Notes: generated by a model from the sequence alone, not told the origin. DNA of 54,065 nt from Catajapyx aquilonaris (GCA_000934665.2 JYFJ02002606.1:1-54065); one strand, 5' to 3'; positions 1-31,379 are shown, counted from the stretch's first letter. Numbers and translations are program-made.

Positions 1-3000
1 AGGACAAAGGGATGCGCAGGAAGGAAGGCGAAAAAAAGGAAAGTGGAAAGCGGACAAAGACGAAAGACGAGACGCAGGACAGTGGGACTGTCATCGAGAT
101 TATTTATTTGAGGTAGGTTCAGTCGACTTTAAGGTTATTCTGTGGAGCAGGGTGAGAATGAAATGTATACAGGTAAGAATAACAAGGGATATTTATTCCA
201 GGAATGAATGAGCACTAAAATGTGCTTGCTAACAATCGGTATTGAAAAACATAAGTGTTAAACACTGTTTGAGTAGCCTACTAAGAACACTTGTTGTAAA
301 CTTACGTGGCGTGGACGTCCTGTGAGGGGGAGAATGTGGCCAAGTGCTGAGTTTGGCGGTGTGGTGTGCCCTGCATGGAGGATCTCTGCTCTCAAGACTG
401 CCCAAACTTCGTCTTTTATACTTAACTTGCACGTGTTAACTACTTTATGACGGTGTCCAATGACGCACACCGATGTCTATTGACGTAGGGGAAGGTGGGG
501 CAAAGTGAAACGGAGGGCAAAGCGAAACACAGGCGTAAATTTTTCGTGCGGTGTGTGCCATCTCCTGTATCTTGCTACATCTAATGATCCACATAATGAT
601 GCACATAAATTACCTGATGGCAGCACTTTTTTGAAACTACAACGACTCAGGCAGCCATTTTTCATTTTGAACGGTCGCTGATGTAAATTCGACCATTCAC
701 TGAATAAGCTCTTGAAGTTGGCGTAAGTCATTGTCAAAGCTATCAATTATTTTGGAGGTATGTAAGATCACTCTTCACAGCATGGCAGTTCTTAAAGTTT
801 GATTTGATCAGCACTGTTAAAATGCCAGTAAGTTAATCGAGACCACGTGGTATGGGGCAAAGTGGAACGGGCAAAGTGGAACGCGTACCGCTATGCTCCG
901 TATATGCAAGAAATGGTCGCACGAGGAATGCACATTGTTTGATGCCGAAATAGATGATGAGGCTGCATACATTTGTGACTTATGCAAACTGTAGACTAAA
1001 GTGTAAGATGAGGGGTCTCACAAGTCAGATCAAAGGCGGCTAAAGTCCCAAAAAACACTGGTCGTAAAATTATGTGTCAAATAAAGTTTAATCGTGGCAG
1101 ATAATTGGAAAAAGTCCTTAATATTACTATACATTCCCGTAGGACCTGGATCATGAGTGTGCTGGTAGTATACAAGCATCCAGGACTGATTGATCTCATT
1201 AAAGCAGAGTCGTTCCGCTTTGCCCCACTACGTGTTCCACTTTACCCCGCAGGTGGGGCAAAGTGAAACGGGTTGGTGGGGGTTCAAAAATAAGGTTCTA
1301 ACTCCTACGGTAATTGACTTTAGTAATTCATCACTTCAGGTATTACAGAGGAGACATAAAGGTATTGTGCTGTGCACATTTTATCCCCTCAAGTTTTTCA
1401 TCTGATTGGGAAAAAAATAAACATCCCTGAACCGTTCCGCTTTGCCCCACCTTCCCCTACATTGGGACACCTGACACTACCGATCTCGACTCGATTGGAT
1501 ACGGTTAGTTTTTATGTGCTGAAATGCGTCATATGTTGCTCTACATCAGATGACGCATTTCCTATTTAATGATGATACGGTAAAATTGAAAGGCACCTTT
1601 GCCACGCACAAGAAAATAGTTTAACATGTTACATCAAAGGTTTCGCAAGTAACTCAATGTTACTGGGTGGTTCCATTTCAGATCAGCCAGTGAGTGAAAA
1701 AAGGTGTCAGGTCATAGTCATCGATTTTTTTGAAAAAAATATATGTGAAACCCACATCCAATTGAACTCTTATGGAGGAATCAGTTTTACCAGATTAAAT
1801 TTAGTTATCGAGATATTAATATTTCTTTGAAGGGGCTGTATGAAGTATAAAAGAATATTGCATATTAAAATGGCGTTTTCCATATATTAATTTTTGAAAT
1901 GTGCATGTTGTTGCATAGAAACAAAAATCATCACTGTAAATAAAAAATCGTGTCTCACTTAATACAAATATATACCGAATTTTGATATAATTTTATAATC
2001 GAACTCATGCTACTTTGTTATACAAAAAATAACGATTAAATCTTCAAATTTGCTTCTTCGAGAAAATATTTATTTTAAGTGTGCATATTGTAGCACAATT
2101 ACAAAAGTTGGGACTTTACAAAAATTTATATCTCACGTATAAAAAATATATACCGGGTTTTGACACTACTTAATTTTATAACATGTCCGTCCTTGTAGAG
2201 TAAAAAATAAAAATAAAATATTCAAAATGGCTTCTTCGAGAAAATGTTTATTTGAATTGTGCATTTTGTAGCACAATTACGAAAGTTGTGACTTTACAAA
2301 AATTTGTATCTCACGTATAAAAAATATATACGGGGTTTTGACACCAGTTAATTTTATACCATGCCTTTCCTTTTAAAATAAAAAATAAAAATAAAATATT
2401 CAAAATGGCTTTTTTGAGAAAATAATTTTTGAAATATGCATGTTTTCGCTTGTTGCCATATTTTCACCTCGCATATCTCAACTACACGCGGAGCTAACGA
2501 AGGTTTTATTTCATGGCCTGGAGGAGGAGGATGGGGTCAATATAATCAGCACAACCGTCACTTTTACCATAACGGCGTAATAAATTGCGAAATATGCGCA
2601 TTTTGACCAAAATATGCAAGATTGGTGATTTTTTTTGCAGGTGACTGTACCATTAAATAGTGTAAATTTATGCATTAAATGACAGTGTGTTATTCCAAAA
2701 GCACGAGTTTAAAATGTCATGATGGTTCTCAGAACAGTTCCCGAGATATACTCATTGAAAGCAATGGAAGAAGCGGGAAAAAGTGCGTCTTCGCGTGATT
2801 GTGATTTTGGTACCCCTTCAAAAAAATATTAATATCTCGATAACTAAATTTAATCTGGTAAAACTGATTGCTCCATAAGAGTTCAATTGGATGTGGGTTA
2901 CACATATATTTTTTTCAAAAAAATCGATGACTATGACCTGACACCTTTTTTTCACTCACTGGCTGATCTGAAATGGAACCACCCTACTAAAGATTTTGGC

Positions 3001-5892
3001 TTACTCAGCAAGGATGGCAGGATGACCAAAGACGTTGGGGAAGATGATGAAAGGGCAAGTGGAATGCAAGCGAAGACGAAGGGTGATGAGGAGCAGGACA
3101 AAGGAATGAGCACGAAGGAAGGCGAAGAAAAGGAAAGTGGAACGCGGACAGAGACGAAAGACGAGAAGCAGGACAGTGGGACGACCAAAGACGTTGGGGA
3201 AGATGATGATGAAAGGGCAAGTGGAATGCAAGCGAAGACGAAGACTGATGAGAAGCAGGACAAAGGGATGAGCACGAAGGAAGGCGAAGGAAAGGAAAGT
3301 GGAAAGCGGACAGAGACGAAAGGCGAGACGCAGGACAGCAGGACGACCAAAGACGTTGGGGAAGATGAGGAAAGGGCAAGTGGAATGCAAGCGAAGACGA
3401 AAGGTGAGAAGTCGGAGGGAAGGACAAGCACGTCGAGAGGAGAGGACCATGAGGAAAGGGCAAGTGGCAAGCGGGCCAAGACTGGTGAGAAACAGGAGAG
3501 AAGGAGGAGCACGAAGGACGATGAGGAAAAGGCAAGTGGAAAGAAGAAGAAGAGGGCAAAGAGCGTGGTGGACAGTGACAAACAGGAGTCTGGAAGCCGG
3601 AAAGAAAGAGAACCTGCCGAGAGCGTGGACGGAAAGGACCAACACGTGCAGTTCAAGGAAGCTAAAGGCAAGTAGTTCTAGATGCCTCGGCCATTTTTCT
3701 CCCTCCCACCAAGCGTAGCGTTGGAAATAAGTACACCAACTACGCCTCAGGGCAGTACAACTAAATAAATCAATAAATAAGTACACTAACTATATATACA
3801 TAGAACCAGTCCCCTGCAACTCCCAGCCCAGTCTTATGGCCTTGGCAACGTCGCAAACGTCGTCACTTTGTTCCCCCCTCCAAGATTTGGAAATAAGTTA
3901 ATATAGCTTATTTACCAGTACAACCACTACACATAGCTATCGTTGATATTTCTAACCGTGCAAGCTTATGGTAACGCCTATCCTCCTATACAGTTCGCAG
4001 ACGAAAAGAGTCCGACGAAGGCCGCCTGAAGTACACGGCCAAGACAGAGAAGTTGAGGCAGCACAGTTCCGTGAGGGCCCTTCTGGAGGCTGGAGCTGAC
4101 GTGAACCTGGAGGTGAACGGACAGAACCCTCTGTCACTGGCCATCCTCCACGGGAACGAGCATCTCCTACCTCTCTTGCTGAGTTCCGGAGCGGATCCGA
4201 ACAAACCTCTGTCCATGGGCACCGGAAGCGCCTTGGGAGCGGCTCTCATCGTCGAGGGGGAACGGGACAGGACGCTCAAGAAGAGGAAGAAGATAGTGGA
4301 CACCCTTCTGGACAAAGGGAAGGGGAATTTGAGACAGAAGCTGAAGTTCTCCCCTGGAGAGAAGGACGTTGGGAACGCTGTGGAACTGTTTGAGCGAAGC
4401 ATCAATAGTGAAGAGTGAGTGCTATATGTAATAGTCGCACGACCAGACGCGTGCGACCGAGGTTCAAATCGTGAGAGTTTTAACAAGGCCTTTAGAAGCA
4501 ATCGTCACGACCAGACGATGTGCGACCGACAAAGATTGGCTCCTTTGGTCGTGCGACCGTTGCTCAAATTGTGACGTCGTAAACATGTTTTAGAAGCATT
4601 CGTCGGACGACCAGACACTTTACGACCGACAAAAATGGGCTCCCCTGGTCGTGCGACCTAGGTTCAAATCGTGAGAGTTTAAACATGCCTATAGAAGCAA
4701 TTATTGTCGCACGACCAGACGATTTGCGACCGACAAAAATTGGCTCTCCCTGGTCATGCGACCGTTGCTCAAATTGTGACGTCGGAAACAGGTTTTAGAA
4801 GCATTCGTCGCACGACCAGACACTTTACGACCGACAAAAATGGGCTCCCCTGGTCGTGCGACCGAGTCTCAAATCGTGATGGCTTAAACAGGCCTTTGTA
4901 AGCAATCGTCACACGACCAGATGCTTCGCGATCGACAAAAATTGTCACCCTGGTCGTGCGACCTAGGTTCAAATCGTGAGAGTTTAAACATGCCTATAGA
5001 AGCAATTATTGTCGCACGACCAGACGATTTGCGACCGACAAAAAATTGGCTCCCCTGGTCATGCGACCGTTGCTCAAATTGTGACGTCGTAAACAGGTTT
5101 TAGAAGCATTCGTCGCACGACCAGACGCTTTACGACCGACAATAATGGGCTCCCCATGTCGTGCGACCGAGTCTCAAATCGTGATGGCTTAAACAGGCAT
5201 TTGTATAAGCAATCGTGTGTGCAATCGTCGCACGACCATACTCTTCGCGACCGACAAAAAATTGGCTTCCCTGGTCGTGCGACCGAGGCTGAAGTCGTCC
5301 ATTTTTCTAGCACAAGACAGCTCAACACGTTGACCCTGGTTCGCAAAGGTTACCAGAGAGCCAAGCTGAGGAAGTACCTTGAAGGCCTGTTGCGTTCGAG
5401 CATCATGGATAGAATCAAAGAGATCCTAGAGCTCCTGATGGATCCGACACTGGACGCCAACAAGAGGAAGAGACTCATGAACGAGCTTCGCAGGCTCTTT
5501 CTGTCGGAGATACGCAAGAATAAGGAGGTAATAATTAGGCTCCTGATTGGTTACAACGCTATAGTCTTTGATTTGATTTTTTCCAGATGTTTCTTACGAT
5601 GTTGATGGCCATGGAGAATTTTTGCTTCAGTTGCGGACGACTTGCGAAGAAAGACACGTTGCAGAAGTACGCTTGCAGAGAGTGTGGGATGGTGTTCTGC
5701 TCGGCCGTTTGCAAAAATGAGGCGCATGCTCATAAGAAAAAGGAATGCGGCATTATCAAAAGTAAGCGTAGCTTCATTGCAGGTCAACAACAATTGGCCC
5801 ATCAGATGAATTTTTTGACGAACGCAACCGAGTGCGCACAACAGTTAGCACAGCTTGCAGGGTTGTCATTAGCAATTATTTCTCCCTTATAG
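1..5892 (+). CDS. ANKMY1: Ankyrin repeat and MYND zinc-finger protein (ANKMY1-like), 5'-partial, with an N-terminal 53-54 aa charged tandem-repeat region; repeat exon interrupted by a TE insertion at 89-3019
   Basis: Phase-compatible exons: <1-88 and 3020-3667 (repeat TTKDVGEDDERASGMQAKTK..., GC donor AG|GCAAGT), 3994-4414 (ankyrins: VRALLEAGADVN..QNPLSLAILHGN..GADPNKPLSMGTGSAL..GEKDVGNAVE), 5311-5527, 5587-~5892 (MYND: FCFSCGR..ACRECGMVFCSAVCK..HAHKKKEC). The GADPN..GSAL..VG.AV segment followed by FCxxCGR-MYND matches the ANKMY1 C-terminal layout as I recall it. Confidence 0.7.
488..1457. mobile_element. Non-autonomous Tc1/mariner-pogo-type DNA transposon (MITE) nested in the LTR
   Basis: TIR GGGGAAGGTGGGGCAAAGTGAAACGG (488-513) versus CCGTTCCGCTTTGCCCCACCTTCCCC (1432-1457), flanked by TA on both sides. 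Internal copies of the TIR core at ~853-883 and ~1210-1271. No transposase ORF. Confidence 0.8.
1665..2984. mobile_element. Non-autonomous DNA transposon with ~170-bp TIRs and 4-bp TSD (Sola2-like), nested in the LTR
   Basis: Near-perfect inverted repeats 1665-~1835 and ~2813-2984 (GGGTGGTTCCATTTCAGATCAGCCAGTGAG...). TSD TACT at 1661-1664 and 2985-2988. About three internal ~178-bp AT-rich tandem units (~1865-2440). A 4-bp TSD with GRG termini fits Sola2, but the superfamily call is tentative. Confidence 0.8.
3022..3530 (+). repeat. Coding tandem repeat, 159-162 bp units (53-54 aa), continuing at window positions 1-88
   Basis: Units begin ACCAAAGACGTTGGGGAAGATGA at ~3025, ~3184 and ~3346, then degenerate; positions 1-88 match the unit's 3' half. 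Confidence 0.9.
4434..5290. repeat. Intronic tandem array of ~101-bp hairpin-containing monomers with a 3-monomer higher-order period
   Basis: Monomers start GTCGCACGACCAGA at ~4434, 4504, 4602, 4706, 4807, 4908, 5011, 5112 and 5227. Each full monomer contains the inverse CTGGTCGTGCGAC about 30 nt later. Confidence 0.9.
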
Positions 5893-7616
5893 TGGGTGGA
5901 CTGAGCTGCACTTATTTCCAACGCTACGTTTGGAGGGTGAGAACAAATGGTCGACGTTTACGCAGTTTCAATGCGGGTCAACAATTGGCCCAAAACTATA
6001 TAATTAACTTTTTTACAAACGTAATAGAGTGCCCAGCCTGTTTGTTTGTTTGTTTGTTTATTGAGAAGAAGCCAAAGCAACTATGGCTATCTGGCTATAA
6101 GAAGACGCAAAGGTGGGACTGGACAGATGGAGAGAGAAACGAAGAGGAAAAAGAAGAGAGGAAAGACTATCTCTCTTTGTCTGTCTCCTATCCCAAAGAC
6201 CTGTCCAACTTGGGCGGCCCTACCAGTAGACGAAACTACCGCCGGCGTAGCTCTTGGGGTCATGGGAGAAACGCAAACCCCTCCATTGTATAGTGGGTGT
6301 ACCGTGTGCTGCACTTATTTCCAACGCTACGTGTGGGGGACGGGAACAAAATGGCCGACGTTTGCGACGTTGCCAAAGCTCTGGAGACTTCTTATAGAAC
6401 GGAGCTGTGACCGTCCTTCCGTCCGTCCGTCTGTCTGTGAACAGGGATCAGGGCCTGAACCGCAAGAGGTAACCCAGGCTGCAAACGGTTTTCGGATTTG
6501 CTGGATTCAGTGTGACCAAAACACGTGTATAGGTTTCATGGTCAATTTCCGGTGACCAGCCCCTTCAGCAGGTACCCAGGTTCATTCTATCCTGCAAGGC
6601 AACGTGAAATGAGACTGACAACATTCCATGTCAGTGTTGTCCAATTTGAATTTTGTGAAAAAGTCTACTCTGATCACGCTCGTGTGATTTGCCAATCTTG
6701 TTTGTTTGTTTTTTTTTTCTCCTGGAGAGTTGTTGTCAGAACAATGGAGCTGCGTGAGTGAGGGTGCGCACTCGGTTGAGCTTGTAAAAAAATTTCATAT
6801 AATTACCCTAATATAGTTTAAAATGTGAGGTGAAAACTGTCGAGAAATCGACCGTTAACGACACCATTAGACGTGTGGTAACCTACCCTTGATTGTTGTG
6901 TATTGTTTCAGAGGCCCGAGAAATCTGGGGTATTCCGGTGAATTTTGTGGAGAAACCAAAATACGGAAGTAAGAACCACTCGTCTCATTGCCTACAGAAC
7001 ATGATCGTTAAACACTTTGCTCTTTTTTTCCTAAGAATATGTGCCGGTCAAGCCCGTGTTGCGACGTGCGGTTGGTCACATTCTGACCGAATGCAGAGAT
7101 GCGAGGATGGTTCTGACACCGTCGGAGGCCACTCTTCACACCAAGCCCAAACAAGAAAACTACAGCATCGATTGATGGATTGGTCCTGAACACTGTATAG
7201 CTTATAGCCTGAAAATAGGCATATTATGACCCACCCTTTACACATAGCAGGCTCTATGAAATAAAATATGAATAAGAAAAATGGTTCATATCGAAGCTGG
7301 CATGCGCAATATAGGGTACAAAGCTTCAAAGTGCATTACGTAGGAAGTACTAATCATCAGTCATAATTATTACTCATTACCAATCCCGAGGACTGCATGG
7401 CACACGTGGTGTGTAATGTTTGTTCTATTTGTGTGGTTCTCTGACGGTAGCTGTGCGACAGGCGCTTACATTACGTCCAGAGACAATCATGTCGGAAGCC
7501 CACAAAACATACAGAACAATATGATTATCACTTCTCGTAAAATCTTCGACGCATCATCTTTTATTTTCATTTACGAGGTGAATATATCATCTGTTGTTAA
7601 TTCCAGGAATTGGATG

Positions 7617-9945
7617 TCATTTTCTGTTGCGGGAGTGGGGAATTGGATTGTTACTTCTTACTCTGAAATATTTGGGCCATTTTTGTGTCATGTTTGCACT
7701 CTTCCAGTATCCGAGCTCAAAGGTGAATGCTAGTGCAGCAAGGGACATACCTGTGATCCAGAAAACACACACAACAACAAGATTTTCAACTTTGACTGAT
7801 GCGCCTTTGATGTCTTCGTTCTTCGTCACGTCTTCAGACAGACGCAGAGTTCGGAGGTTGAAGCAGAAATTGCGGAAGCTGTCCTCTCTCTTCCACTGGT
7901 AGTAGAGGTCACTCTCCCACAGCTTCATGCGAAAGTTGAGGAAGTTTGGTACCTCAGCGTTACCCTTGCCGTAGACAATAGAAGTATACACGGTGTAAGC
8001 ATGTTCAGGCGCCACTTGCAAGGTGGGGTCTCCGTTTTCATCTCTCAATTTGGCCTCGTCTCGGTCAACAAAGTAGTTGTACAGTAGACATGCTGTTCTT
8101 GGAGTGTCCACCACTTGTGCCATGCAGTCCTCGGAATTGGTTATGATTGACGATTGGTTGATGAGATCTTCGTAAGGGGTGTTGGCGTATATCTGAGACA
8201 CGACCACCAGGTTTGAGTAGGGTATTAGTGTCTCGTACCCTTCCTGAGCCAGCTGACCCAAGGTCTTGGGCAGTTCCTCCTTGGACAACACGGCCAAGAA
8301 GGCCAGCAGTTTGGTGACGTACCCGCAGGAAACGATGATGGCCATTAGCCTCATTGACCCTTCGAACTCACGAGATGCTGTGAGTTGAGGAAGATCATGA
8401 GGTTGACCGATGAGCATCTTGAAGAGAGAGGCAATGGCTGATCCCAGGCTGATATTTACCCCTGATCGACGGAAGATCATCCACATGGCCACTCCTGAGA
8501 CGACCCAGGTCACGAAGATCAAAGCCCACAGTGGAGGATCAAACGGGTCGAACAACAAGCTCCAAGGGATGATCTTTCTGGGCAAGGCGGTGACGAAGGT
8601 CATGTAAAAATTAAGGACTGCCGTAGAAAATAGCACGTACCGGGGGACCTTGTCAGACATGATGTAAACCATTCCCGAATAGGCTTTTGAGGAGAGGATG
8701 TCTCCAACTGTCCCCGTCCAGCTTCCGTTGGGACGCAACTTGTCCCAGTCGTCCAATGCGATGTCAACAAGACTTATGACCTGAATCCTGCCATTGAAGG
8801 TGTCCTCCCAAGAGAGGTACATCTTCTCCAACCGCGTGAGGTACAGTCGGCCAAACATTTTCAGGTTTTTACGTGCCTCCTCCGTGTCATGGAACTCAAA
8901 GTGGACGAACTTGACCGTACGTCCGTGCAGGTCTCTGCTAGTGTCCGGATAAATGTACTGAACAGGGAATCTGTCCGGATAGCTGCCCAGAGTCATCCAG
9001 TTTGGTTCTCCGTGGTCGCAGTAGAAGCAGACAGTCTCAACTGTCAACAGCTTTCCCGCTTGATTGGTTCTGAAATGACACAATCATTGATAATAAGAGT
9101 GGCGTTTCAGTCTTCTGAAATTAATATATTTATCAAAAGTGTCACTTTATGGTCTACACTCAACAATATTTTCAGGTGGTATATCGACAAATAGCCTAAT
9201 TATTACGGTACCATATATTTTTACCTAACTAATATGTGGGATGCGCTGGTTTCAGTCAAAAATCTTAAATAACAGTGGCGCGAGAATTGAAAAACTGATT
9301 TGTCACAAAGTCACCCCCTCCCCATTTACGGTATAGGTATGTTATTATTGCTTAAATAATATTGCTATAGATAAAGCAATACCTGCTTGATATGATCTTG
9401 TACCGTATCCCTCTGGCTGGATGATCCAGTAGCATATCCTTGTTCTGCTCACTCATGTTGCGAATGTGAAGGACAAAGTTGTCGTGCAGATTCCTGACCT
9501 GTACTGTCCCTGCCAGTTGCACCAGCTGGTCAGGCAGGGTGGACGGAGTGTGGGACACCAAGAGGTGCATGGCACACTTGTCTCCGAGGTTCACCTGGGA
9601 CATCATGTCTGGAGGCATGGTGGTGAAGGAGTGCATCTGCTCAGGACCAGTGATTCCGACGTACTCTCTCCATGGTTTGGGTCGAAACGCGTTGTCCTTT
9701 TTTGCAGCGAGTGTGACCGTCGTGTGGTACCCTCCATATCGTTCAGTCAACAATCCGGACATTCTCGTGCTGTCCTCTCCTTCGCCCAAGGACAGCAGCA
9801 GGGAACAGTCCTGAAGCTGGTTCTCCAGCAGATCTAGGACCATCCTGGACAACAGCTGGTCCTCCTCATCTTCCTGTCGCAGTGTCACCCTGCTTCCGTG
9901 ACAGTCCTGCAGGACAAGAAGTATCAGCAGACTGCAAGCCAGCAT
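7617..9945 (-). CDS. Divergent ionotropic receptor (IR, variant iGluR chemoreceptor) IR-A, 2 exons, ~671 aa
   Basis: Exons 9945-9383 and 9069-7617 (phase 2, GT-AG). Signal peptide, DLHGRT, S1 PNGSWTGTVGDI, LFDPFDPPLWALI-M1, M3 GYVTKLLAFL, S2 and M4 followed by FTFELGYW. Confidence 0.88.
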
Positions 9946-12866: not shown

Positions 12867-15022
12867 ATGTTGGCTTACAATCTTCTGGTGCTTCTTGTCC
12901 TGAAAGAGTGTCAGGGAGGTAGGGTGACACTGCGACAGGAAGATGAGGAGGACCAGCTGCTGTCCAGGATGGTCCTGGAGCTGCTGGTTAACCAGCTTCA
13001 GGACTGTTCACTGGTGCTGTCCTTGGGCGAAGGAGAGGACAGCACGAGAATGTCCGGACTGTTGACTGAACGAAATGGAGGGTACCACACGACGGTCACA
13101 CTCGGTGCAGGAAAGGACAACGCTTTCCGACCCAGACCATGGAACGAATACATCGGAATCACTGGTCCTGAGCAGATGCACTCCTTCACCACCATGCCTC
13201 CAGATATGATGTCCCAGGTGAACCTCGGAGACAAGTGTGTCCTGCACCTCTTGGTGTCCCACACTCCGTCCACCCTCCATGACCAGTTGGTTCAACTGGC
13301 AGGGACAGTCCGGGTTATAAACCTGGACGATCACTTCGTCCTGCACTTCCGCAACATGACTGATCAGACGAACAAGGATTTGCTTCTGGATCATCCAGCC
13401 AAAGGCATCCGGTACAAGATCATATCAAACAGGTACCTTTTCTAGTAATATTCATTTTTGTTAATATACGAGTATAAAACTGCACTCTTTTTGATATATG
13501 TGTCTATCATTTCAGAATCAATCAATCACAGAAGCAATTGAGAGTTGAAACGGTCTGCTTTTACTGTGACCATGGCCATCCGAACTGGATGACGCTGGGT
13601 AGCTATCCGGACAAATTCATTGTTCATGACATGTATCCGGACACTAGCAGAGACCTGCATGGGCGTACGATCAAGTTTGTCCACTTTGAATATGGAGACA
13701 CGGAGGCGTCACGTAAGAAGCTAAAAATATTTGGGCGCCTGTCCGTCACGTGGCTGCAGAAGGGTTTGCTCGCGTGGGAGGACACTTTCAATGGCAGGAT
13801 GAAGATCATAAGCCCTGATGACCCCACTCTGGGAAATTGGGACAAGATCCGTCCAAACGGAAGCTGGACGGGAACAGTTGGAGACATAATATCAGGAACA
13901 GCTGATTCGGGAATGGTGTACATCATGTCTGACCAGGTGGTCCGTTACGTGATATTCTCTCCGGCAGTTTATAATGCCTACATGACCTTCGTCACAGCCT
14001 TGCCCAGAAAGGTCATCTCCTGGAGCTTGCTGTTCGACCCATTTGATCCCCCACTGTGGGCATTGATCCTGGTAGCCTGGATCATATCAGGAGTGGCCTT
14101 GTGGATGATCATCCGTCGTTCAGGGGTGAAGATCAGCCTTGGATCAGCAACGGCCTCCCTCTTCAAGATGCTCATTGGACAGCCTCATGATCTTCCTCAA
14201 CTCACAGCATCTCGTGAGTTCGAAGGGGCAATGAGGCTCATGGCCATCATCGTCTCCTGCGGATACGTCACCAAACTGCTGGCCTTCTTGGCCGTGTTGT
14301 CCAAGGAGGAACTGCCCAAGACCTTGGGCCAGCTGGCCCAGGAAGGGTACGAGACACTAATACCCTACTCGAACCTCATAGTCGTCTCTCAGGTCGACGC
14401 CAACACACCTCACGAGGGGTTCATCAACCAATCATCAATCATTGCCAATGCTGAGGACTGCATGGTACATGTTGTGGACACTCCAAGAAAAGCTTGTCTG
14501 CTGTACAACTACTTTGTTGACCGAGATGAAGGTAAAATGAGAGACGACAATGGAAATCCTACCTTACAACTGGCGCCTGAACATGCTTACGTCGTGTATT
14601 CTGCAGTTGTATTCGGGAAGGGTATTGTTGAAATACCAAGGACTCTCATGTGTCTCACGAAGTTGGATGAAAGTGGGCTGTACGACCAGTGGAAGAGAGA
14701 GGACACCTTCAGCGCCTTCTGGACCAACCTTCAAAATATACGTCTCACAAAAGTTGTCACAAAGGCAGATCACGTGGAAGACGCTGTCAAGGCTGATAAT
14801 CTCATTGTTGTGTTTGCTTTATGGGTCACAGGAATATTCTTAGCTTCACTGTTATTCACCTTTGAGATTGTGTACTGGAAGAGTAAAGACATGTTCTCAC
14901 ACAATATTGGCAATAAATCAGACGAAGAGGTGACAATCCAAATCACCGCTCCAGTCACAGAGTTTGAATTACAAGAAGTGAGATGTTCACCACAGACAGT
15001 CCTACCTCAGTGTGATTATTAA
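12867..15022 (+). CDS. Divergent ionotropic receptor IR-C, 2 exons, ~690 aa
   Basis: Exons 12867-13432 and 13516-15022 (phase 2, same intron position as IR-A and IR-D); same IR motifs. Confidence 0.88.
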
Positions 15023-16558: not shown

Positions 16559-17885
16559 TGTCTTCACACTGACCTGAGATAAGGACTAACTAATGGCAAG
16601 TCTAAGTTTGCACATATAGCTAGATAATTGTTGTCACAGACTTACCTTATTAGTACGGAGCTTGAATATTGTTTGATCAGAAATCTGTCGATGAGATTAT
16701 CCCACAGCTGTAATTAGATTCATTGTTACCATGCATATCAATAGTAACCGCGAACGATATAAACAATCATTACCTGTAAGAGCCAGATACTTTGCACTGC
16801 AAAGTAAAAGTGAGCTTTCCCAACTGTTACATCCAGACAAGCCTTTATATTGACATGATGCATGTGATGAGTAAGGGTGACCATGAGTGAACATGTGTCA
16901 AGGGTTACAAGAATAGTCAGGCAGTGATTCGCAAGTCATATACAGTGTGACAATGACATAGTGAATCAGATATTACAATTTTACTATCACAGTCAGAGAT
17001 AATGAACAACTCCTAATGTAACTGATAACTAATAGAAAAATTTCCATGTAAATTTTTATTTAAATAATTCGTGCCCCTGTATGTTACTGACCTGCCTATA
17101 CTTGGAGGTGTGTAAATATATTGTTGAACAAGTGAGTTGTTGACATCGTAGCTCCTTTGATCCTGCGGTGTGTCTCTCATTACTCGACACGCTCCGGCAT
17201 ACATGACAGTACTTATTATATTATTAATATTATCGATCGTATTCTTGGAAAACAACAGGTGACTCTGTTGCGCTCTGTTGCATATATGAACTGACATATT
17301 CAAATTTCGGATTAGAAACATCTCCACTAGTAAAAACGGACGAAGCAAGTCGTGATTTCACATAATATACCGATTTTCTGTCAAATATTAACCCAAACGA
17401 AAGGAATTTGCACGATCAAATAATTTTGCAGTTCACAGTGTATTGTGTTGGATTCTATTTAATGTGACAAACGTTAACAGCAACATCTGATAATTATTTT
17501 TCGAAGTAGTAATTGGCAAACAATATTTTGCGTAGTGCCCACGTGTATATCAATATTTGCAACACTGAGTCCCAGGTGTATGACTGGAGCGGCTGCCAAC
17601 GACAACACTGATACCCCATCATTATTACTGGCAATAGCATGATCTCGGGACTGATAGTAAGGCGCTCCGTTCTCGAGAAACAATTATCACAACATTTTGA
17701 AGGGCTAACAGTCACTTTACCTTCACCACACATTGCTGCCAGCTAGTCTAAAGCCGGTTCTGGAGTGGTTAATTACAGTCCAGTTGTTTCCAATTCTAGG
17801 AAGGATAATCAACTATTTAGTTACATGACGTCATGACGAAGGTTTGTTTATCTAGAGGTACAGTGCTACGCAGTTGGAGGAAACA

Positions 17886-20012
17886 ATGCTGGCTTGCAGT
17901 CTGCTGTTGCTTCTTGCTCTGCAGAACTGTCAGGGAGGTAGTGTGAATCTGCTGCAAGAAGATGAGGAGGACCAGCTGGTGTCCAGGATGGTCCTGGAGC
18001 TGCTGGAGAACCAGCTTCAGGACTGCTCGTTGGTGCTGTCCTTGGGCGAAGGAGAGGACAGCTCGAGTTTGTCCGGACTGTTGACTGAACGAAATGGAGG
18101 GTACCACACGACGGTCACACTCGGTGAAGGAAAGGACAACGCGTTTCGACCCAAACCATGGAACGAATACATCGGAATCACTGGTCCTGAGCAGATGCAC
18201 TCCTTCACCACCATGCCTCCAGACATGATGTCCCAAGTACCAGCCGGAGGAACATATTGTGTCCTGCACCTCTTGGTGTCCCACACTCCGTCCACCCTGC
18301 CTGACCAGCTGGTTCAACTGGCAGGGACAGTCCGGGTCAGGAATCTGCACGACCACTTCGTTCTTCACTTTCGCAACATAACTGCGCAAAACAAAGATAT
18401 GCTACTGGATAATCCAGCCAGAGGCATCCGGTACAAGATCATATCAAACAGGTACTGTTTTCTTTTTAAAAAAATCACATTTTTGCTAAAGTTCGAGAGC
18501 AAGCTTGCACTCTTATCGATGACTGGATCCTTATTTTTCAGAACTAATCAAGCAAGAATGTCCGGAAAGCAGTTGACACTTGAGACCGTGTGCTTCTACT
18601 GCGATCACGGACATCCCAACTGGATGACTCTGGGCAGCTATCCGGACAGATTCCCACTTGGAGATGTGTATCCGGACACTAGCGGAGACCTGCACGGAAG
18701 TACGATCAATTTCGCCCACATTGAATTCCATGACACGTCGTTGGCACGTAAAATCCTGAATTTATTTGGGCGGCTGTACCTCACTTCGCTTCAGAAGATG
18801 TACCTCACGTGGGAGGACACCTTCAACGCAAGGATGAAGGTCATAGACGTAGATGACCCCAAGACGGAACAGTGGGACAAGATGAGACCAAACGGAAGCT
18901 GGGTGGGGTCAGTCGGACAAATACTGTCCGGAGAAGCCACTGCTGGATTGATGTACTTCATGTCTGACCAGGCCGTCCGGTACGTGCTATTTTCTCCGGC
19001 AGTCCTTAATTTTTACATGACATTCGTCACAGCCTTGCCCAGAAAGGTCATCTCTTGGAGCTTGCTGTTCGACCCATTCGATCTCTCACTGTGGGCATTG
19101 ATCCTGGTGACCTGGATCATATCAGGAGTGGCCATGTGGATGATCATCCGTCGCTCAGGAGTGAATATCAGCCTGGGATCAGCAACAGCATCTCTCTTCA
19201 AGATGCTCATTGGACAGCCTCATGATCTTCCTCAACTCACAGCATCTCGTGAGTTCGAAGGGGCAATGAGGCTCATGGCCATCATCGTCTCCTGCGGGTA
19301 CGTCACCAAACTGCTGGCCTTCTTGGCCGTGCTGTCCAAGGAGGAACTGCCCAGGACCTTGGGTCAGCTGGCTCAGGAAGGGTACGAGACACTGATACCC
19401 TACTCAAACCTGGTGGTCGTCTCTCAGATCTACGCCAACACCCCTTACGAAGATCTCATCAACCAATCATCAATCATGACCAATTCCGAGGATTGCATGG
19501 CACAAGTGGTCGACACTCCAAGAAAAGCATGTCTACTGTACAACTACTTTGTTGACCGAGACGAAGGCAAATTGAGAGATGAGAACGGAGACCCCACCTT
19601 GCAAGTGGCTCCTGAACATGCATACAACGTGTATACTTCTGTTGTCTGCGACAAGGGTATCGTTGCGGTACCAAGAGCTCTCATGTTTCTCATGAAGCTG
19701 TGGGAGAGTGACCTCTACAACCAGTGGAAGAGAGAGGACACCTTACGCGATTTGTGGGCCAACCGTCCCATAATGCGTCTTGCAGAAGATGGTCCAAAGG
19801 ACTATCGCAGGGAAAACGCAGCCAAAGCTGAAAATCTTCTCGTTGTGTGTGTTTTCTGGATCACCGGAATGTCTCTTGCTGCACTGGCATTCACCTTTGA
19901 GCTTGGATACTGGAAGAGTTCAAAAGTGTTCTCACGCAAGAATGGCGAACAAACAAAGGAAGAGGTAATAATCCCAGTAACACATTCATCAGAATCAGTA
20001 CTTCAACTATAG
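17886..20012 (+). CDS. Divergent ionotropic receptor IR-D, 2 exons, ~678 aa
   Basis: Exons 17886-18451 and 18542-20012. The 90-nt intron is at the conserved position but is stop-free, which explains the 712-aa ORF in the track. Confidence 0.88.
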   Translation: MLACSLLLLLALQNCQGGSVNLLQEDEEDQLVSRMVLELLENQLQDCSLVLSLGEGEDSSSLSGLLTERNGGYHTTVTLGEGKDNAFRPKPWNEYIGITGPEQMHSFTTMPPDMMSQVPAGGTYCVLHLLVSHTPSTLPDQLVQLAGTVRVRNLHDHFVLHFRNITAQNKDMLLDNPARGIRYKIISNRYCFLFKKITFLLKFESKLALLSMTGSLFFRTNQARMSGKQLTLETVCFYCDHGHPNWMTLGSYPDRFPLGDVYPDTSGDLHGSTINFAHIEFHDTSLARKILNLFGRLYLTSLQKMYLTWEDTFNARMKVIDVDDPKTEQWDKMRPNGSWVGSVGQILSGEATAGLMYFMSDQAVRYVLFSPAVLNFYMTFVTALPRKVISWSLLFDPFDLSLWALILVTWIISGVAMWMIIRRSGVNISLGSATASLFKMLIGQPHDLPQLTASREFEGAMRLMAIIVSCGYVTKLLAFLAVLSKEELPRTLGQLAQEGYETLIPYSNLVVVSQIYANTPYEDLINQSSIMTNSEDCMAQVVDTPRKACLLYNYFVDRDEGKLRDENGDPTLQVAPEHAYNVYTSVVCDKGIVAVPRALMFLMKLWESDLYNQWKREDTLRDLWANRPIMRLAEDGPKDYRRENAAKAENLLVVCVFWITGMSLAALAFTFELGYWKSSKVFSRKNGEQTKEEVIIPVTHSSESVLQL

Positions 20013-20643
20013 GTCCGTAGCATTACTTTCTTTGATCAATGATAATAATCAATATTTTGCGCAATCACTGTATGATTAACAACCTTGAATGTCAGGTGTA
20101 AGTACCGGCTTCCGGCAACCGTATGGCACTCCAGAATTATTTTTGACCTTTACATGCTTAATAAAGAACTGACAGTTTTTGGTACGGTAATCGATGATGT
20201 ATTGATGTACCGGTACAGTCACCTTACCTACACTTAGCATGTACACTTTACAATTTTACTCTCACAGTCAGCTAATGAACAAATCTATTACTCGTAACTG
20301 ATGACAAATAGAAAATTTTGTATTGTAAATTTTTATTGAAATAATTCCTGGCCCTGTAAGGTCATGTTGCTTCCATATGTTATACTGACCTTCCTATACT
20401 TGGAGGTGTTCGAATTGTTGAACAAGTGAGTTGTTGACATCGTAGCTCCTTTGATCCTGCAGGTATGTCTGTCATTACCCGACACGCTCCGGTACATGAC
20501 AGTACATAGATTATTATCGATCATATTCTTTGAAAACAACAAGAAGTGACTCTGTGGCGCTCTGTGGTCAGGATGTTTCACAATATTTTCTTACGCTGAA
20601 AGAGACAGTCCGGTTGCCCCATTGCGGGACAATTATTTAAATT

Positions 20644-22520
20644 ATGTTTCCTTTTGGACTTGTTGTTTATTGTTGCTTCAACATTGCGGGAGCTCTCGTA
20701 CATATACAGTCTGTAAATGGGACAGACGATCGAATCCCTCAGTTTGTCATCAATATTCTTGGACATGACCTCGTCATGGACATGGAGTGTCCACTGGCCA
20801 TCACCCACGACTGGGACGGACCAATCCCTCAGAGTCTGGACACACTCCTGTCCAGCATGTCATATTCTGGACGACCCCTGGTCATCAGGGCAAGTTCTCG
20901 GAGCACCTGGGATTGCCAACCGACATCTAGAGACAATGCGGCCGTGTTCAGAGAGCCATACCGCGCATCCAAGTGTCTGGTGCACATGGTTGTGACATGC
21001 CAGGACACCTACGAGGACATGATGGACATCATTTTGGACCCGGACGAAGGGATGCTCGGAGTGAGGAAGACAAAGGACCGGTTCGTGTTCTGGATACGGG
21101 ACTCGACTCGTCCGGATTTCATGATGGACAAACCGGCCTCGCAGTTCAAGTACAAGGTGTCGCTGAGTACAGGAGGAGCCAACGGTGCTCTCAAGGCACA
21201 CTCGGTGTGCTTCTTCTGCGACCAAGGAGAACCACAGATCGAATCAGTGTCTGGGGACAGTTTGTTCAGAGACACTGCAGAGGACTTACATGGGAAACAC
21301 CTAGAAGGTGTGTACATGTGGGACAATATAGACGACAAGTGCATCGGCGGAGACTTACTCGATGTCCACATGTGCTTCTTAGGTCAAGCCATGAACTTCA
21401 AATGGCATATGACCGAGGTTGATTTCGACTCAATCCTTTCCGATGCTGGCAGAAGCCTCGATCTGATGGAAGATTTTCAATCAGGAAAAGTAGCCTTCAT
21501 ACCAAAGGCCCCTGTGTTAGACCTGATATACCAACTGTTTGACTGTGCTACACCTCACGGTGCATACAGATACACGTTCATAGCACGTAAACCACGAGCA
21601 CTAATTACGCCATTAATTTTAGTAATGCCCTTCTCACTTACGACTTGGTGCATGTTGATTGCATCTTTTTTGATGGAGGTTGGATTTTTTTCATTGATCG
21701 CCAAGTTTCATAGAAGACATGGAGTATTTAGCCTACTCCGTTCAATTCAACTGTGGCTATTTTTAAATATTTGGCGAAAATTGTTGTGGAGCAGTTTCCT
21801 CCTTCTCCTTCATCATCATCGTACAGAATGTTCCTGATGTTCTGGGTATATTTTTGCACAATTTTTTGCACCGGATACAAAAGCAAGTTGTTCGACAAGC
21901 TTATTTTTCCACCATTAGAAATAATTCCTAGGGACATACATGAACTGACGTATTCCAATTTCGCCATAGAAACGTCTCCAATAGTGAAAATGTTTATGGA
22001 CGAAGCAAGTAGTGATTTCAAAGACACATATTCCGCTTTCTTGTCAAAAATAAATGTTGTAGATCGGATCGTGACACGCTCTGAGGACATTACGACAGGT
22101 GATGTTGTGATCCTGGAAGCCGATCCTGTTCTGGAGGATATCTCTTTTGTATTATCTATTGAAGGCATTGGTGAGACTCTAACATCAAGTGACACCATGG
22201 CTCTTGTACACACATCTTTGATCGTACTCAAGGACAGCATTTACTCTGAGAACATTAACAAATGGATGCATGTGTTCAACAGCATCGGTTTGGAGTTGTA
22301 TCGGAAGAGTTTGAAGAGACATGAACTATCGTTGTATGCTTCTAAAATGAAGGAGATGAGGAAGTTGTACACTTCGGACAGAAACGATGTGCAGTTCACA
22401 TGGCGTCATGTCGAAGGATCTTTCTTGATTCTGTTCATTGGATGTATGGCAGGATTGGTTGCACTTTTGCGAGAACTGTGCTCTGTTTGTAAGCGAAAAC
22501 GGCATCCATTTCTACCCTAG
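20644..22520 (+). pseudogene. Intronless divergent IR (IR-E) with one frameshift after M1 (pseudogene or sequence error)
   Basis: ORF 20644-21837 carries the signal peptide, CFFCDQG, DLHGKHL and LVMPFSLTTW-M1. ORF 21753-22520 carries IVVEQ, M3 GYKSKLF, S2 and M4. A -1 frame change occurs at ~21730-21755, with no room for an intron. Confidence 0.78.
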
Positions 22521-28847: not shown

Positions 28848-30743
28848 TTACAAGACCGCGGCTTTTGAAGTTGAACGAAAATGAACAAGTTCGCAAACAA
28901 AACTTATGATGCAAGATGCCAAAAGGAGCGATAGAAGTACAAACAGACCTTTCATCTGGCGTATATTTAGAGCCATCGAGTACGTGTACAGACGGTTTTC
29001 TTTTCTCGCATCCTTAAGTCCCATCATGAAAAAGGACCGGACGAACTCATCCATGTAATGATCGTATATTCCGGCTTCTGATATGTAAATCTGCATCCTC
29101 GCAATTACAGGACCAATCGGCGAGTACTTAGGCATTGCTATTCCGCATATGATTCGTAATGAGTTGTCATCAGCTATTTCCACAGGAAGCGTTCCTTCTT
29201 TGTCGACCTGCTGGTACGCCATTGCGTTCAGAAGTTCTTCGACCGCCAAGCAACTGAAGTCCTCGTTAATAGACCGCATCAGACACGCCTTCATATCGCC
29301 ACCGTTCTGAAGCTTCGGCTGAATATCATGATGATACGAGACCTCCGAATCGGCTATGAACATGTCCATATAAGGTCTGACCCAATCGAGCGCGCCCCAT
29401 TGCCAATCAGGCCAGTTCACCATCTGTCGTAAGTCGTTCGGTAGCGATTCCATCTGCGGCGACACTAGAAACCCAAAGTACTTGGCCTCGTATCCACAAA
29501 TAATAACGTCGCATGATATCCACCAAAATGCAATTAGTACACGAAGCGTATGAGCTGTCGGTACCAAGTTCGGATTCTCTTCAATTAGAGCGGAAAATAT
29601 GTAGCGGATGGAATACAATGCGGCGGACGGAGGTGGTTTATCGTCGAATGACGTGGCGAATGAACCATGCAGTTTGATGAGTGCTAACAATGTTATGCTG
29701 GTGATCGTTGCGGTTACAAATATTGCGGCCCACATGCCTTTAGTGAACGGCAATGCGATTGAGTAAAATGAGAACAGTCGGCCAGGCGTACGTCTCATGA
29801 ATGTTGTTTGCGCCGTATAAAAATTAAACGGCAAATCCACAACCTGCACAAGACCTACTCGGGACATACCCGAAGCGATGTCAACCTCACGGCGTATCAT
29901 CTGCCCAGCCATACCAGTCCAGTTGCCGTCCGGAAGCGCAATCTCCTGGTTTTTTCCGGGTATCTCCGGAGGCGTGTCGATATGCCAGTCGAAGTTCAGT
30001 TGTCGTCCGGATGCTGCGTACATACGGAGGTACGGATATACCGGAAGTCCACTGTCCAACATGAAGTTGAGCTCGTCTGGCGATGCACCGAGAGGAAACG
30101 AACCGTTCAGATGACGTCCATGGAAATTTAATGTGAAGTCCGGATACAGCTCAAGATTCAAATCCGGGTACTTCCCGCGTCGTACCACCGCCGGATTGCC
30201 TTCGTTGCAATACAGACAATTGTTGCTTATGGTCAACTCTGCGTCCAATGCGAGTTGATACAGAAAGTTGTAATCCGGATGAAGCATCGCCGGTTCCGCA
30301 TTGTTGTCACGACTAATGTACATAAACCGGTCACGTCTCGGGTTCATCCGGACTATACTCGCGACATACCGGATCAGCCGTTCGTAATGTTCGTTACGGT
30401 ACATCAGTACGAACAAGGTGCATTTGCTGAGATGCTGCGATGTTGGTCGTTCCAGCCACGAGAAGTAGTATTCGAAGTCGCCAGGTCCTGTGTTTCGAAA
30501 CGGTTGCGGTTCAGGTGTCGACGATGTCCATTTGACGATGGCTACCGGACCACCGGAGCTGATGTTCATCATGTCATACCGCGGTGTTACGTCTCGATCA
30601 TGAGCAATCACTAATAGACAATCACTTTTCTGGCCGTGCACCATTTGTATAAATGAACCAACATGTTCGTCTTCGTTGATTGATTGTAGATTAATCGCAG
30701 CGACGGCCAATAACAGCAACGACAATGCAACGACACAGTACAT
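28848..30743 (-). CDS. Intronless divergent ionotropic receptor IR-F, 631 aa
   Basis: Signal peptide, CLYCNEG, YPDFTLNFHGRHL, LPDGNWTGMAGQMIRREVDIA, IALPFTKGMWAAI-M1, M3 GYEAKYFGFL, S2, and M4 ending SFVCEL. Confidence 0.88.
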   Translation of the reverse strand: MYCVVALSLLLLAVAAINLQSINEDEHVGSFIQMVHGQKSDCLLVIAHDRDVTPRYDMMNISSGGPVAIVKWTSSTPEPQPFRNTGPGDFEYYFSWLERPTSQHLSKCTLFVLMYRNEHYERLIRYVASIVRMNPRRDRFMYISRDNNAEPAMLHPDYNFLYQLALDAELTISNNCLYCNEGNPAVVRRGKYPDLNLELYPDFTLNFHGRHLNGSFPLGASPDELNFMLDSGLPVYPYLRMYAASGRQLNFDWHIDTPPEIPGKNQEIALPDGNWTGMAGQMIRREVDIASGMSRVGLVQVVDLPFNFYTAQTTFMRRTPGRLFSFYSIALPFTKGMWAAIFVTATITSITLLALIKLHGSFATSFDDKPPPSAALYSIRYIFSALIEENPNLVPTAHTLRVLIAFWWISCDVIICGYEAKYFGFLVSPQMESLPNDLRQMVNWPDWQWGALDWVRPYMDMFIADSEVSYHHDIQPKLQNGGDMKACLMRSINEDFSCLAVEELLNAMAYQQVDKEGTLPVEIADDNSLRIICGIAMPKYSPIGPVIARMQIYISEAGIYDHYMDEFVRSFFMMGLKDARKENRLYTYSMALNIRQMKGLFVLLSLLLASCIISFVCELVHFRSTSKAAVL

Positions 30744-31379
30744 GTTTGCAGGCTACGTACACCCAAGGAAATGTACTGAGTTGTGTAATGAGCGTTTAAC
30801 TTTTGATCTTTACTCATGCAAGTTCCCTTAACAATGAATCGAAATTACAATGTAAGTTTTTCTTTGAAGTGATCGCAGGGTATGAACAATAGTCATGTCA
30901 ATGTGCGGATGACGAGATGGTTCACATCCGCATGTCAGCCGTTTTGCCATTGAATGATTTCAAAGCGAGTACTGTCGAATTAAATATGCTGTTAAATATG
31001 TAACGATAACATTGTCCCATTTTTTTGTGCTGTATAAAATGAGTGTGTAGCAATGTACCTTTTTTCCATTGTTATACTGTATGAGAAAAATATTGATTGA
31101 TTTCGAACCCGGAGTAATTTAGCTCAACATGCGGACTAATAAGCCTTCATTTTACTATGAACGATGCATGTCAAAATGTCATGATTGCGACATGTCGACC
31201 ACATGTCGGATAGCTTCAAACGACATGATAAATGCATTAGGTAACTTGAAAAAAAAAAAAGGCCATTAAATTTAATTGAACACCGATATCAATTTTTGTA
31301 CATTTAATCATAATTATATAAACAATATTCAGGAGTACACCAGCGAGCACAATATTTGTATATAGGACAATTCAAACAA

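Follow-up and report, generated by a model that had tools for sequence, protein, structure and literature searches.

A candidate young intron formed by a probable solo long terminal repeat with two nested transposons in a repeat-coding exon of Catajapyx aquilonaris

The left end of a 54,065-nt stretch of DNA from Catajapyx aquilonaris (GCA_000934665.2, JYFJ02002606.1:1-54065; this whole stretch is called the window below) holds part of a gene whose coding sequence is broken by a 2.9-kb insert at positions 89-3019. The gene is laid out as charged repeats, then an ankyrin region, then a HIT-like zinc finger. It is very probable that an element of the long terminal repeat (LTR) type integrated into one 162-nt coding repeat unit of this single-copy, arthropod-like gene, and that it is now loaded with two nested elements. 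The integrated element is most probably a solo LTR, about 631 nt long and oriented antisense to the gene. Here we describe the locus and weigh the tentative reading that the insert has become a spliceosomal intron.

Positions 1-88 (+) are the left part of one unit of the 162-nt repeat (family D2), with 92% identity to 3095-3182 and 91% identity to 3257-3344 when the window is compared with itself. Codons in this part begin at positions divisible by 3, and the frame is open over 3-113. In a side-by-side alignment the intact units run on without interruption, whereas this unit breaks off after position 88 and continues at 3024. The intervening DNA begins with TG (89-90) and ends with CA (3018-3019), and the first 7 bases of its termini agree at 6 of 7 positions once one end is reverse-complemented. 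Comparison of the flanks with an intact unit reveals a 4-bp target site duplication, GGAC on the left (85-88) and GGAT on the right (3020-3023), identical at three of its four bases; the fourth shows C>T where the original unit has a CpG. By simple arithmetic, at least three matching bases out of four would be seen by chance with a probability of about 0.05. The stretch 89-3019 has TG...CA ends, is flanked by a target duplication, and consists of multi-copy DNA, and we therefore regard it as an insertion; the same three features rule out an old intron that was lost from the other repeat units. An initial annotation of this DNA had already taken the TG...CA insert to split a coding repeat unit, and the alignment together with the 4-bp duplication bears this out. 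Its claim of a translational stop was likewise reproduced, since translation carried on in the repeat frame halts at TAG 114-116, 26 nt inside the insert.

The LTR-like DNA lies in three pieces (89-485, 1460-1664, and 2985-3019) that add up to about 631 nt without duplicated bases. The first piece (89-485, minus strand), which would be the 3' part of the element if it is antisense, has a word depth a few times that of single-copy DNA. The second (1460-1664, minus strand) sits between the nested elements and is continuous with 2985 onward in other copies. The third (2985-3019, minus strand) contains both a branch-like TACTAAA (2985-2991) and the proposed acceptor CAG ending at 3008. In a motif scan, the minus strand of the first piece carries TATAAA (420->415) and AATAAA (197->192 and 108->103), as motif matches only, and neither motif is found on the gene's strand in the LTR pieces. 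Confinement of these motifs to the minus strand makes it likely that the LTR lies antisense to the gene, and because of it the gene's transcript meets no polyadenylation signal from the LTR. Thus, of the antisense solo LTR proposed in the initial annotation, the LTR-type element is upheld by the TG...CA ends and the duplication, but its antisense orientation is likely rather than settled.

Two further transposons had also been placed inside the LTR, and both were recovered as elements with inverted repeats, at 488-1457 and 1665-2984. The first occupies 486-1459 with its flanks, which are a TA duplication at 486-487 and 1458-1459, and has 29-nt terminal inverted repeats and internal copies of a GGGGCAAAGTGRAACG motif. 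The second (1665-2984) has 172-nt terminal inverted repeats that differ by 3 mismatches and 2 gap columns over 172 nt, internal 178-nt tandem repeats, and a TACT duplication at 1661-1664 and 2985-2988. Within the first element, a short open reading frame (ORF) at 821-994 (+) ends in a Cys/His-rich motif (C..W.HE.C ... C..C) that is reminiscent of the zinc-binding tails of transposon proteins. A blastn search of the 54-kb window for other copies of the insert's five pieces returned only self matches and internal repeats.

Contigs from the DNA runs of the source material carry the insert as well. We placed contigs from three runs of one sample, probably that behind the assembly, on window positions 1-6000, along with those from a fourth run (X5), of unspecified kind, from another sample; contigs were compared rather than raw reads, and 15 of the 38 joints were listed. 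Of the five runs returned for this locus, none was listed as RNA. The junction between exon and insert is spanned by a 250-nt contig consisting of window positions 1-163 and 87 nt of upstream sequence, which occurs without differences at a depth of 27.1 in run X2 and with one difference (98 G>A) at a depth of 24.5 in run X3. Depths for a single-copy contig at 3372-4581 are 26.1 (X2) and 19.3 (X3). Because the junction stands at single-copy depth, the insert is real and gives no sign of half depth or of an empty allele; it is present at full single-copy depth and fixed in the sequenced sample. The G and A at position 98 come from contigs of the same sample (X2 and X3, respectively); the site falls within the 24 nt that would be exonized, and the difference is synonymous (GAG/GAA) in the proposed frame.

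Further copies of the LTR, a search for which had been suggested at the outset, are present in the contigs and lack nested elements 1 and 2. The joint 485->1458, in copies free of element 1, has depths of 53.3, 61.5, and 48.9, with 2 letters (TA) that fit either side. In copies free of element 2, the joint 1649->2985 reaches depths of 50.5 (X2) and 43.1 (X3), and the 13 letters between its two sides correspond to the window's 1650-1660 plus a 2-letter insertion. Both joints keep a single target site. The LTR pieces and element 1 are repeated from a few-fold to about ten-fold, in contigs too short to show ends at 89 and 3019. Element 2, with word depths of 9,048-47,156 compared with 19-33 for single-copy DNA, belongs to a very high-copy family. 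The 18 contigs placed from run X5 are for the most part 90-95% alike and confined to the nested elements, and they are uninformative on this gene. Other LTR copies also skip 217 nt at 159-375 (depth 63-74). This stretch, likewise bounded by TG on the left and CA on the right but without a clear duplication, could be either a deletion in those copies or a third small insertion here.

Downstream of the insert, the gene can be followed through a model of 3-112, 3009-3667, 3994-4414, 5311-5527, and 5587-5761, with consistent phases and no stop, in agreement with the earlier claim that the downstream ankyrin and zinc-finger exons stay open. The remainder of the repeat exon (3009-3667, +) is rich in K, E, D, and G and lies within an ORF of 2854-3675. 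It ends at a GC donor at 3668 (AAG|GCAAGT) that has 8 of 9 consensus matches and is in phase with the ankyrin exon. Its six repeat spacings (78, 84, 78, 81, 84, and 72; family D1) are all multiples of 3. Composition here is strongly purine-rich (AT skew of 0.44 and GC skew of 0.26 over 3001-4000), and another plus-strand frame and each of the three minus-strand frames also contain long open stretches. Because the region is purine-rich and open in several frames on both strands, the openness of the repeat exon proves little.

The ankyrin-repeat exon (3994-4414, +), anticipated in the initial annotation, was confirmed by matches to Pfam Ank (E = 5.8e-08; 33 bits against a cut-off of 21.1) and Ank_2 (31.6 bits against a cut-off of 27.3), and its phase fits the neighboring exons. 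It is followed by an exon with no family match (5311-5527, +), whose phases are consistent with those of its neighbors, and by a zinc-finger exon (5587-5761, +) with 8 Cys/His ligands in a HIT-like pattern. The best Pfam match of this last exon is zf-HIT, with E = 0.0023 and 18.1 bits, below the cut-off of 24.7; it had been called a MYND exon, but no zf-MYND match at E <= 0.01 was obtained in Pfam. When the ankyrin exon was compared with longer proteins, 616 of 2,826 candidates matched at E <= 0.001, all of them generic ankyrin proteins, with identity of at most 55% among the top-ranked matches; in metagenomes, 595 pattern stretches were matched and none was confirmed. No gene model or orthologue of the host gene was found in these protein and metagenome searches. 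The introns have contents of their own. Intron 3668-3993 holds a high-copy short repeat (word depth of about 2,700-3,600) that is also found near 5900 and 6300. Intron 4415-5310 is filled with a tandem repeat of a few hundred nucleotides, rich in CGACC/GGTCG and with depth up to about 680, and reads show a form that skips 287 nt at 4740->5028.

The signals by which the insert could be removed from the transcript lie close to its two ends. The proposed donor, GTAGGT at 113-118 (+), follows an exon that ends at 112 in phase 2, includes the in-frame TAG, and is located 24 nt inside the left end of the insert. Its context (GAG|GTAGGT) matches MAG|GTRAGT at 7 of 9 positions, compared with 8, 7, and 6 of 9 for the gene's other donors, and it is the only GT donor with at least 6 of 9 matches at intron starts 4-116. 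On the other side, the proposed acceptor CTTACTCAG|C gives an intron end at 3008, again in phase 2, and a second in-phase acceptor is provided by a CAG that ends at 3020 and is made up of the end of the LTR and the duplication. The branch-like TACTAAA precedes 3008 by 18-19 nt. The first AG at a sufficient distance behind a branch site is usually used, and because the AG at 3008 is the first one far enough behind TACTAAA, it is the expected acceptor. Joining 112 to 3009 yields an open frame with a net gain of 39 nt, or 13 codons; both 112|3009 and 112|3021 connect phase 2 to phase 2 and keep the frame open. A phase 2 donor at 113, a phase 2 acceptor ending at 3008, and a restored frame with 39 additional nucleotides had all been put forward in the initial annotation, and each was reproduced, by consensus matching, splice-site scan, and translation, respectively. 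The branch-like CTACTAA it located at 2984-2990 is present too, but does not belong wholly to the LTR, as its C, at 2984, still belongs to nested transposon 2, which ends there.

How often such an arrangement would appear by accident can be gauged with a crude estimate from the window's own motif frequencies on both strands. GT donors with at least 7 of 9 matches are found at 287 of 108,112 positions (0.0027), which gives P = 0.07 for one within the 28 bases where a donor is permissible. For the 170-nt open zone, an in-phase YAG acceptor having 8 or more pyrimidines out of 16 is expected with P = 0.6, and the joint chance of the donor and acceptor arrangement is about 0.04. Three more donor-like sites follow at 134-178 (+), with intron starts at 134, 152, and 173 (7/9, 7/9, and 8/9 matches), the last of them being CAG|GTAAGA. 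As an observation in its own right, the four sites at 113, 134, 152, and 173 fall within 61 nt, where about 0.16 would be expected from the window frequency. They share one phase and are spaced by 21, 18, and 21 nt. The clustering may reflect some property of the antisense LTR end.

Overall, it is somewhat less likely than not that the insert is removed as an intron in at least part of the transcripts. A bolder reading goes further and is correspondingly tentative: that a fixed solo LTR in a coding exon has turned into a young spliceosomal intron, that its own ends supply the donor, the branch site, and the acceptor, that the protein gains 13 residues, and that the intron later served as a landing place for two transposons. 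Under this reading, the gene would stay productive as the spliceosome removes the insert. Splicing would proceed from the donor at 113 through the branch-like sequence at 2985-2991 to the acceptor at 3008, or else to the CAG at 3020, and the protein would gain 13 (or 9) residues within a disordered, charged repeat region of already variable length. Some of the transcripts would probably be spliced from 134, 152, or 173 instead and carry a premature stop. In the precursor RNA, the long inverted ends of nested element 2 would pair and loop out about 1 kb.

A number of points weigh against the insert being a working intron. The acceptors have meager pyrimidine tracts, with 8 of 16 pyrimidines at -20..-5 for 3008 and 7 of 16 for 3020, compared with 10-12 of 16 at the gene's three other acceptors. 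The donors at 134, 152, and 173 are in phase 2, are situated behind the stop, and could outcompete the one at 113; since they lie after the TAG, their use would end translation early. Within the insert, pseudo-exons could arise from strong acceptor/donor pairs at 1252/1253 and 2640/2641. It is conceivable that the LTR already contained the nested elements when it reached this site. An empty-site joint skipping 89-3019 or 89-3023 was not among the 15 of 38 joints listed, which does not strictly exclude it. Our view of the gene begins at window position 1, with its more 5' exons outside. As for the gene itself, the repeat exon has no Pfam family and no match among 1,835,955,588 protein representatives, and none of 69 candidates for exon 5311-5527 reached E <= 1. 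Because no orthologue was found for the repeat exon or for exon 5311-5527, the gene may be young and dispensable. Finally, we simulated neutral decay over the 1,471 nt of downstream exons. With no selection, the probability of seeing neither a stop nor a frameshift is 0.23-0.59 at 0.5% divergence, 0.05-0.35 at 1%, and 0.003-0.12 at 2%. Because neutral survival is not improbable, the open downstream exons are weak evidence for a living gene.

Several of these points lend themselves to the foremost alternative, namely, a dead or dying gene. Here the insertion would have inactivated a dispensable gene restricted to its lineage and become fixed by drift, in this sample at least. The resemblance to splice signals would be coincidental, and too little time would have passed for the downstream exons to decay. 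We consider this explanation somewhat less probable than splicing of the insert. The stop that lies in frame only 26 nt into the insert, the competing donors behind it, the lack of relatives for two of the exons, and the neutral simulation all fit with it. In addition, the 7 nucleotide differences between units 1-88 and 3095-3182 translate into 6 residue differences, which argues that the repeats are little constrained. Nevertheless, coincidence would have to account for a splice arrangement with only about 4% chance expectation, and all three downstream introns retain their signals and phases, while the ankyrin and zinc-ligand residues are intact. Time also enters the argument. The age clues (one mutated CpG base in the duplication, the mismatches between the arms of element 2, and the nested elements) bound the age poorly, and the mutated duplication base together with the G/A at 98 suggests that the insert did not arrive just recently. 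Some age is likewise suggested by the altered duplication and the nested elements, and yet about 1.5 kb of exon has no stop or frameshift, which a dead gene would not readily explain.

The remaining explanations are less probable. The gene could yield a truncated product, with transcription initiated within the insert, perhaps in one of the nested elements, and translation at an ATG at 3022-3024, so that the upstream part is missing. This ATG borders the insert, is in the coding frame, was created from the ACG codon of the intact unit by the C>T change in the right duplication, has an A at -3 (context GGCAGGATGA), and is followed by sequence that is open throughout. We nonetheless find such a start improbable, as the TATA of the LTR points the opposite way, there is no promoter evidence, out-of-frame ATGs at 2891, 2927, 2933, 2973, and 3014 come first, and the open left part of the repeat is left unexplained. 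Equally improbable, in our judgment, is that the repeat is noncoding here, being an untranslated region or an intronic minisatellite, in which case no reading frame was interrupted and the insert would call for no special removal. Such an origin would agree with the purine-rich composition, the open frames in several frames and on both strands, and the lack of a Pfam family or homologue, but not with six spacings that are all multiples of 3, nor with the fact that the frame open for longest (2854-3675) terminates in a consensus GC donor whose phase suits the ankyrin exon. Least probable of all is a bypass of the insert from weak exonic donors at 43 or 82 (phase 1) to phase 1 acceptors at 2992, 3031, or 3043, for example, or by skipping of the whole repeat exon: such sites exist in a repeat region that tolerates length change, but the donors have only 5 of 9 matches, and position -3 of the acceptors, whose tracts are poor, is a purine.

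Beyond this gene, the window contains a likely ionotropic-receptor cluster made up of long single-exon ORFs at 7617-9083 (-), 13478-15022 (+), 17856-20012 (+), 20641-22520 (+), and 28848-30752 (-). The ORF at 7617-9083 is nearest to Lig_chan clusters that are mostly from arthropods (Atlas score of 0.97) and has no Pfam match at E <= 0.01. Farther along, two very similar 259-residue ORFs for atlastin-like GTPases, at 39238-40017 and 44792-45571 (+), lie 5.5 kb apart within a region of sustained positive GC skew (about 38-48 kb) and look like a tandem duplication. The best matches of the atlastin-like ORF are to insects, Daphnia, and horseshoe crabs, with 53-59% identity. These neighbors of the interrupted gene point to an arthropod-like genome with proteins that are absent from the databases.

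Recent intron gains are rare in animals, and most of what is concluded about the origin of new introns still comes from large transposon families of protists, fungi, and plants. If the insert is indeed a spliced solo LTR, the locus would offer a datable case, in an animal, of intron gain through an LTR element, and a single animal gene would exhibit each step in the birth of an intron from such an element. The visible steps include the target duplication, a donor and an acceptor in the element's ends, and later growth by nested insertions, with the intact paralogous repeat units acting as an empty site within the gene itself. It would also illustrate how a disordered repeat region can buffer a small insertion into the protein. 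If the gene is dead, the locus is an ordinary transposon knock-out.

Counterparts of the proposed process are known from introners, transposable elements that give rise to introns in families. According to Gozashti et al. 2025 (PMC12130899), about 12% of the introner families that are confidently classified are LTR retrotransposons, and in Panicum virgatum functional introns come from full Copia elements as well as from their solo-LTRs. In such cases, as proposed for the present insert, an LTR element sits in a coding exon and is removed there as a spliceosomal intron. Introners form families with many intron-forming copies backed by gene models. Solo-LTR introns as a kind are therefore already published (PMC12130899), and this insert would be another, if spliced. 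Unlike introners, the case described here involves one copy in one gene, a family of few-fold copy number, and a host that is arthropod-like instead of a plant or protist, with candidate splicing read from the DNA. The low copy number of the LTR family argues against a large introner family. Among the papers listed by a thin literature search there was no animal case in which a solo LTR became a new intron in a coding exon, and we make no claim of absence.

A nearer parallel in an arthropod is the retrotransposon 412 in an exon of the Drosophila vermilion gene, which Fridell, Pret, and Searles reportedly described in 1990 as being spliced from precursor RNA at cryptic sites near the element's ends. 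That insertion is said to be a laboratory mutant allele with a full-length element and reduced gene function. A later paper terms it an antisense transposable element insertion (PMC4691828). The likeness would lie in an antisense LTR retrotransposon located in an arthropod exon and spliced out there. The present insert differs in being a probable solo LTR that stands at full depth and contains nested elements, and in being interpreted from genomic DNA. Cut-and-paste elements offer a further comparison: Tc1 in exons of Caenorhabditis elegans (Rushforth and Anderson, 1996) and Ds in exons of maize (Giroux and coworkers, 1994) are likewise reported to be removed by splicing. With Tc1 and Ds, the spliceosome reportedly uses sites in or near the element's ends, precisely or imprecisely, so that a few residues are gained or lost in frame. 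Both are cut-and-paste elements found in mutant alleles, whereas at the locus described here the outer element is LTR-like and the cut-and-paste elements are its passengers.

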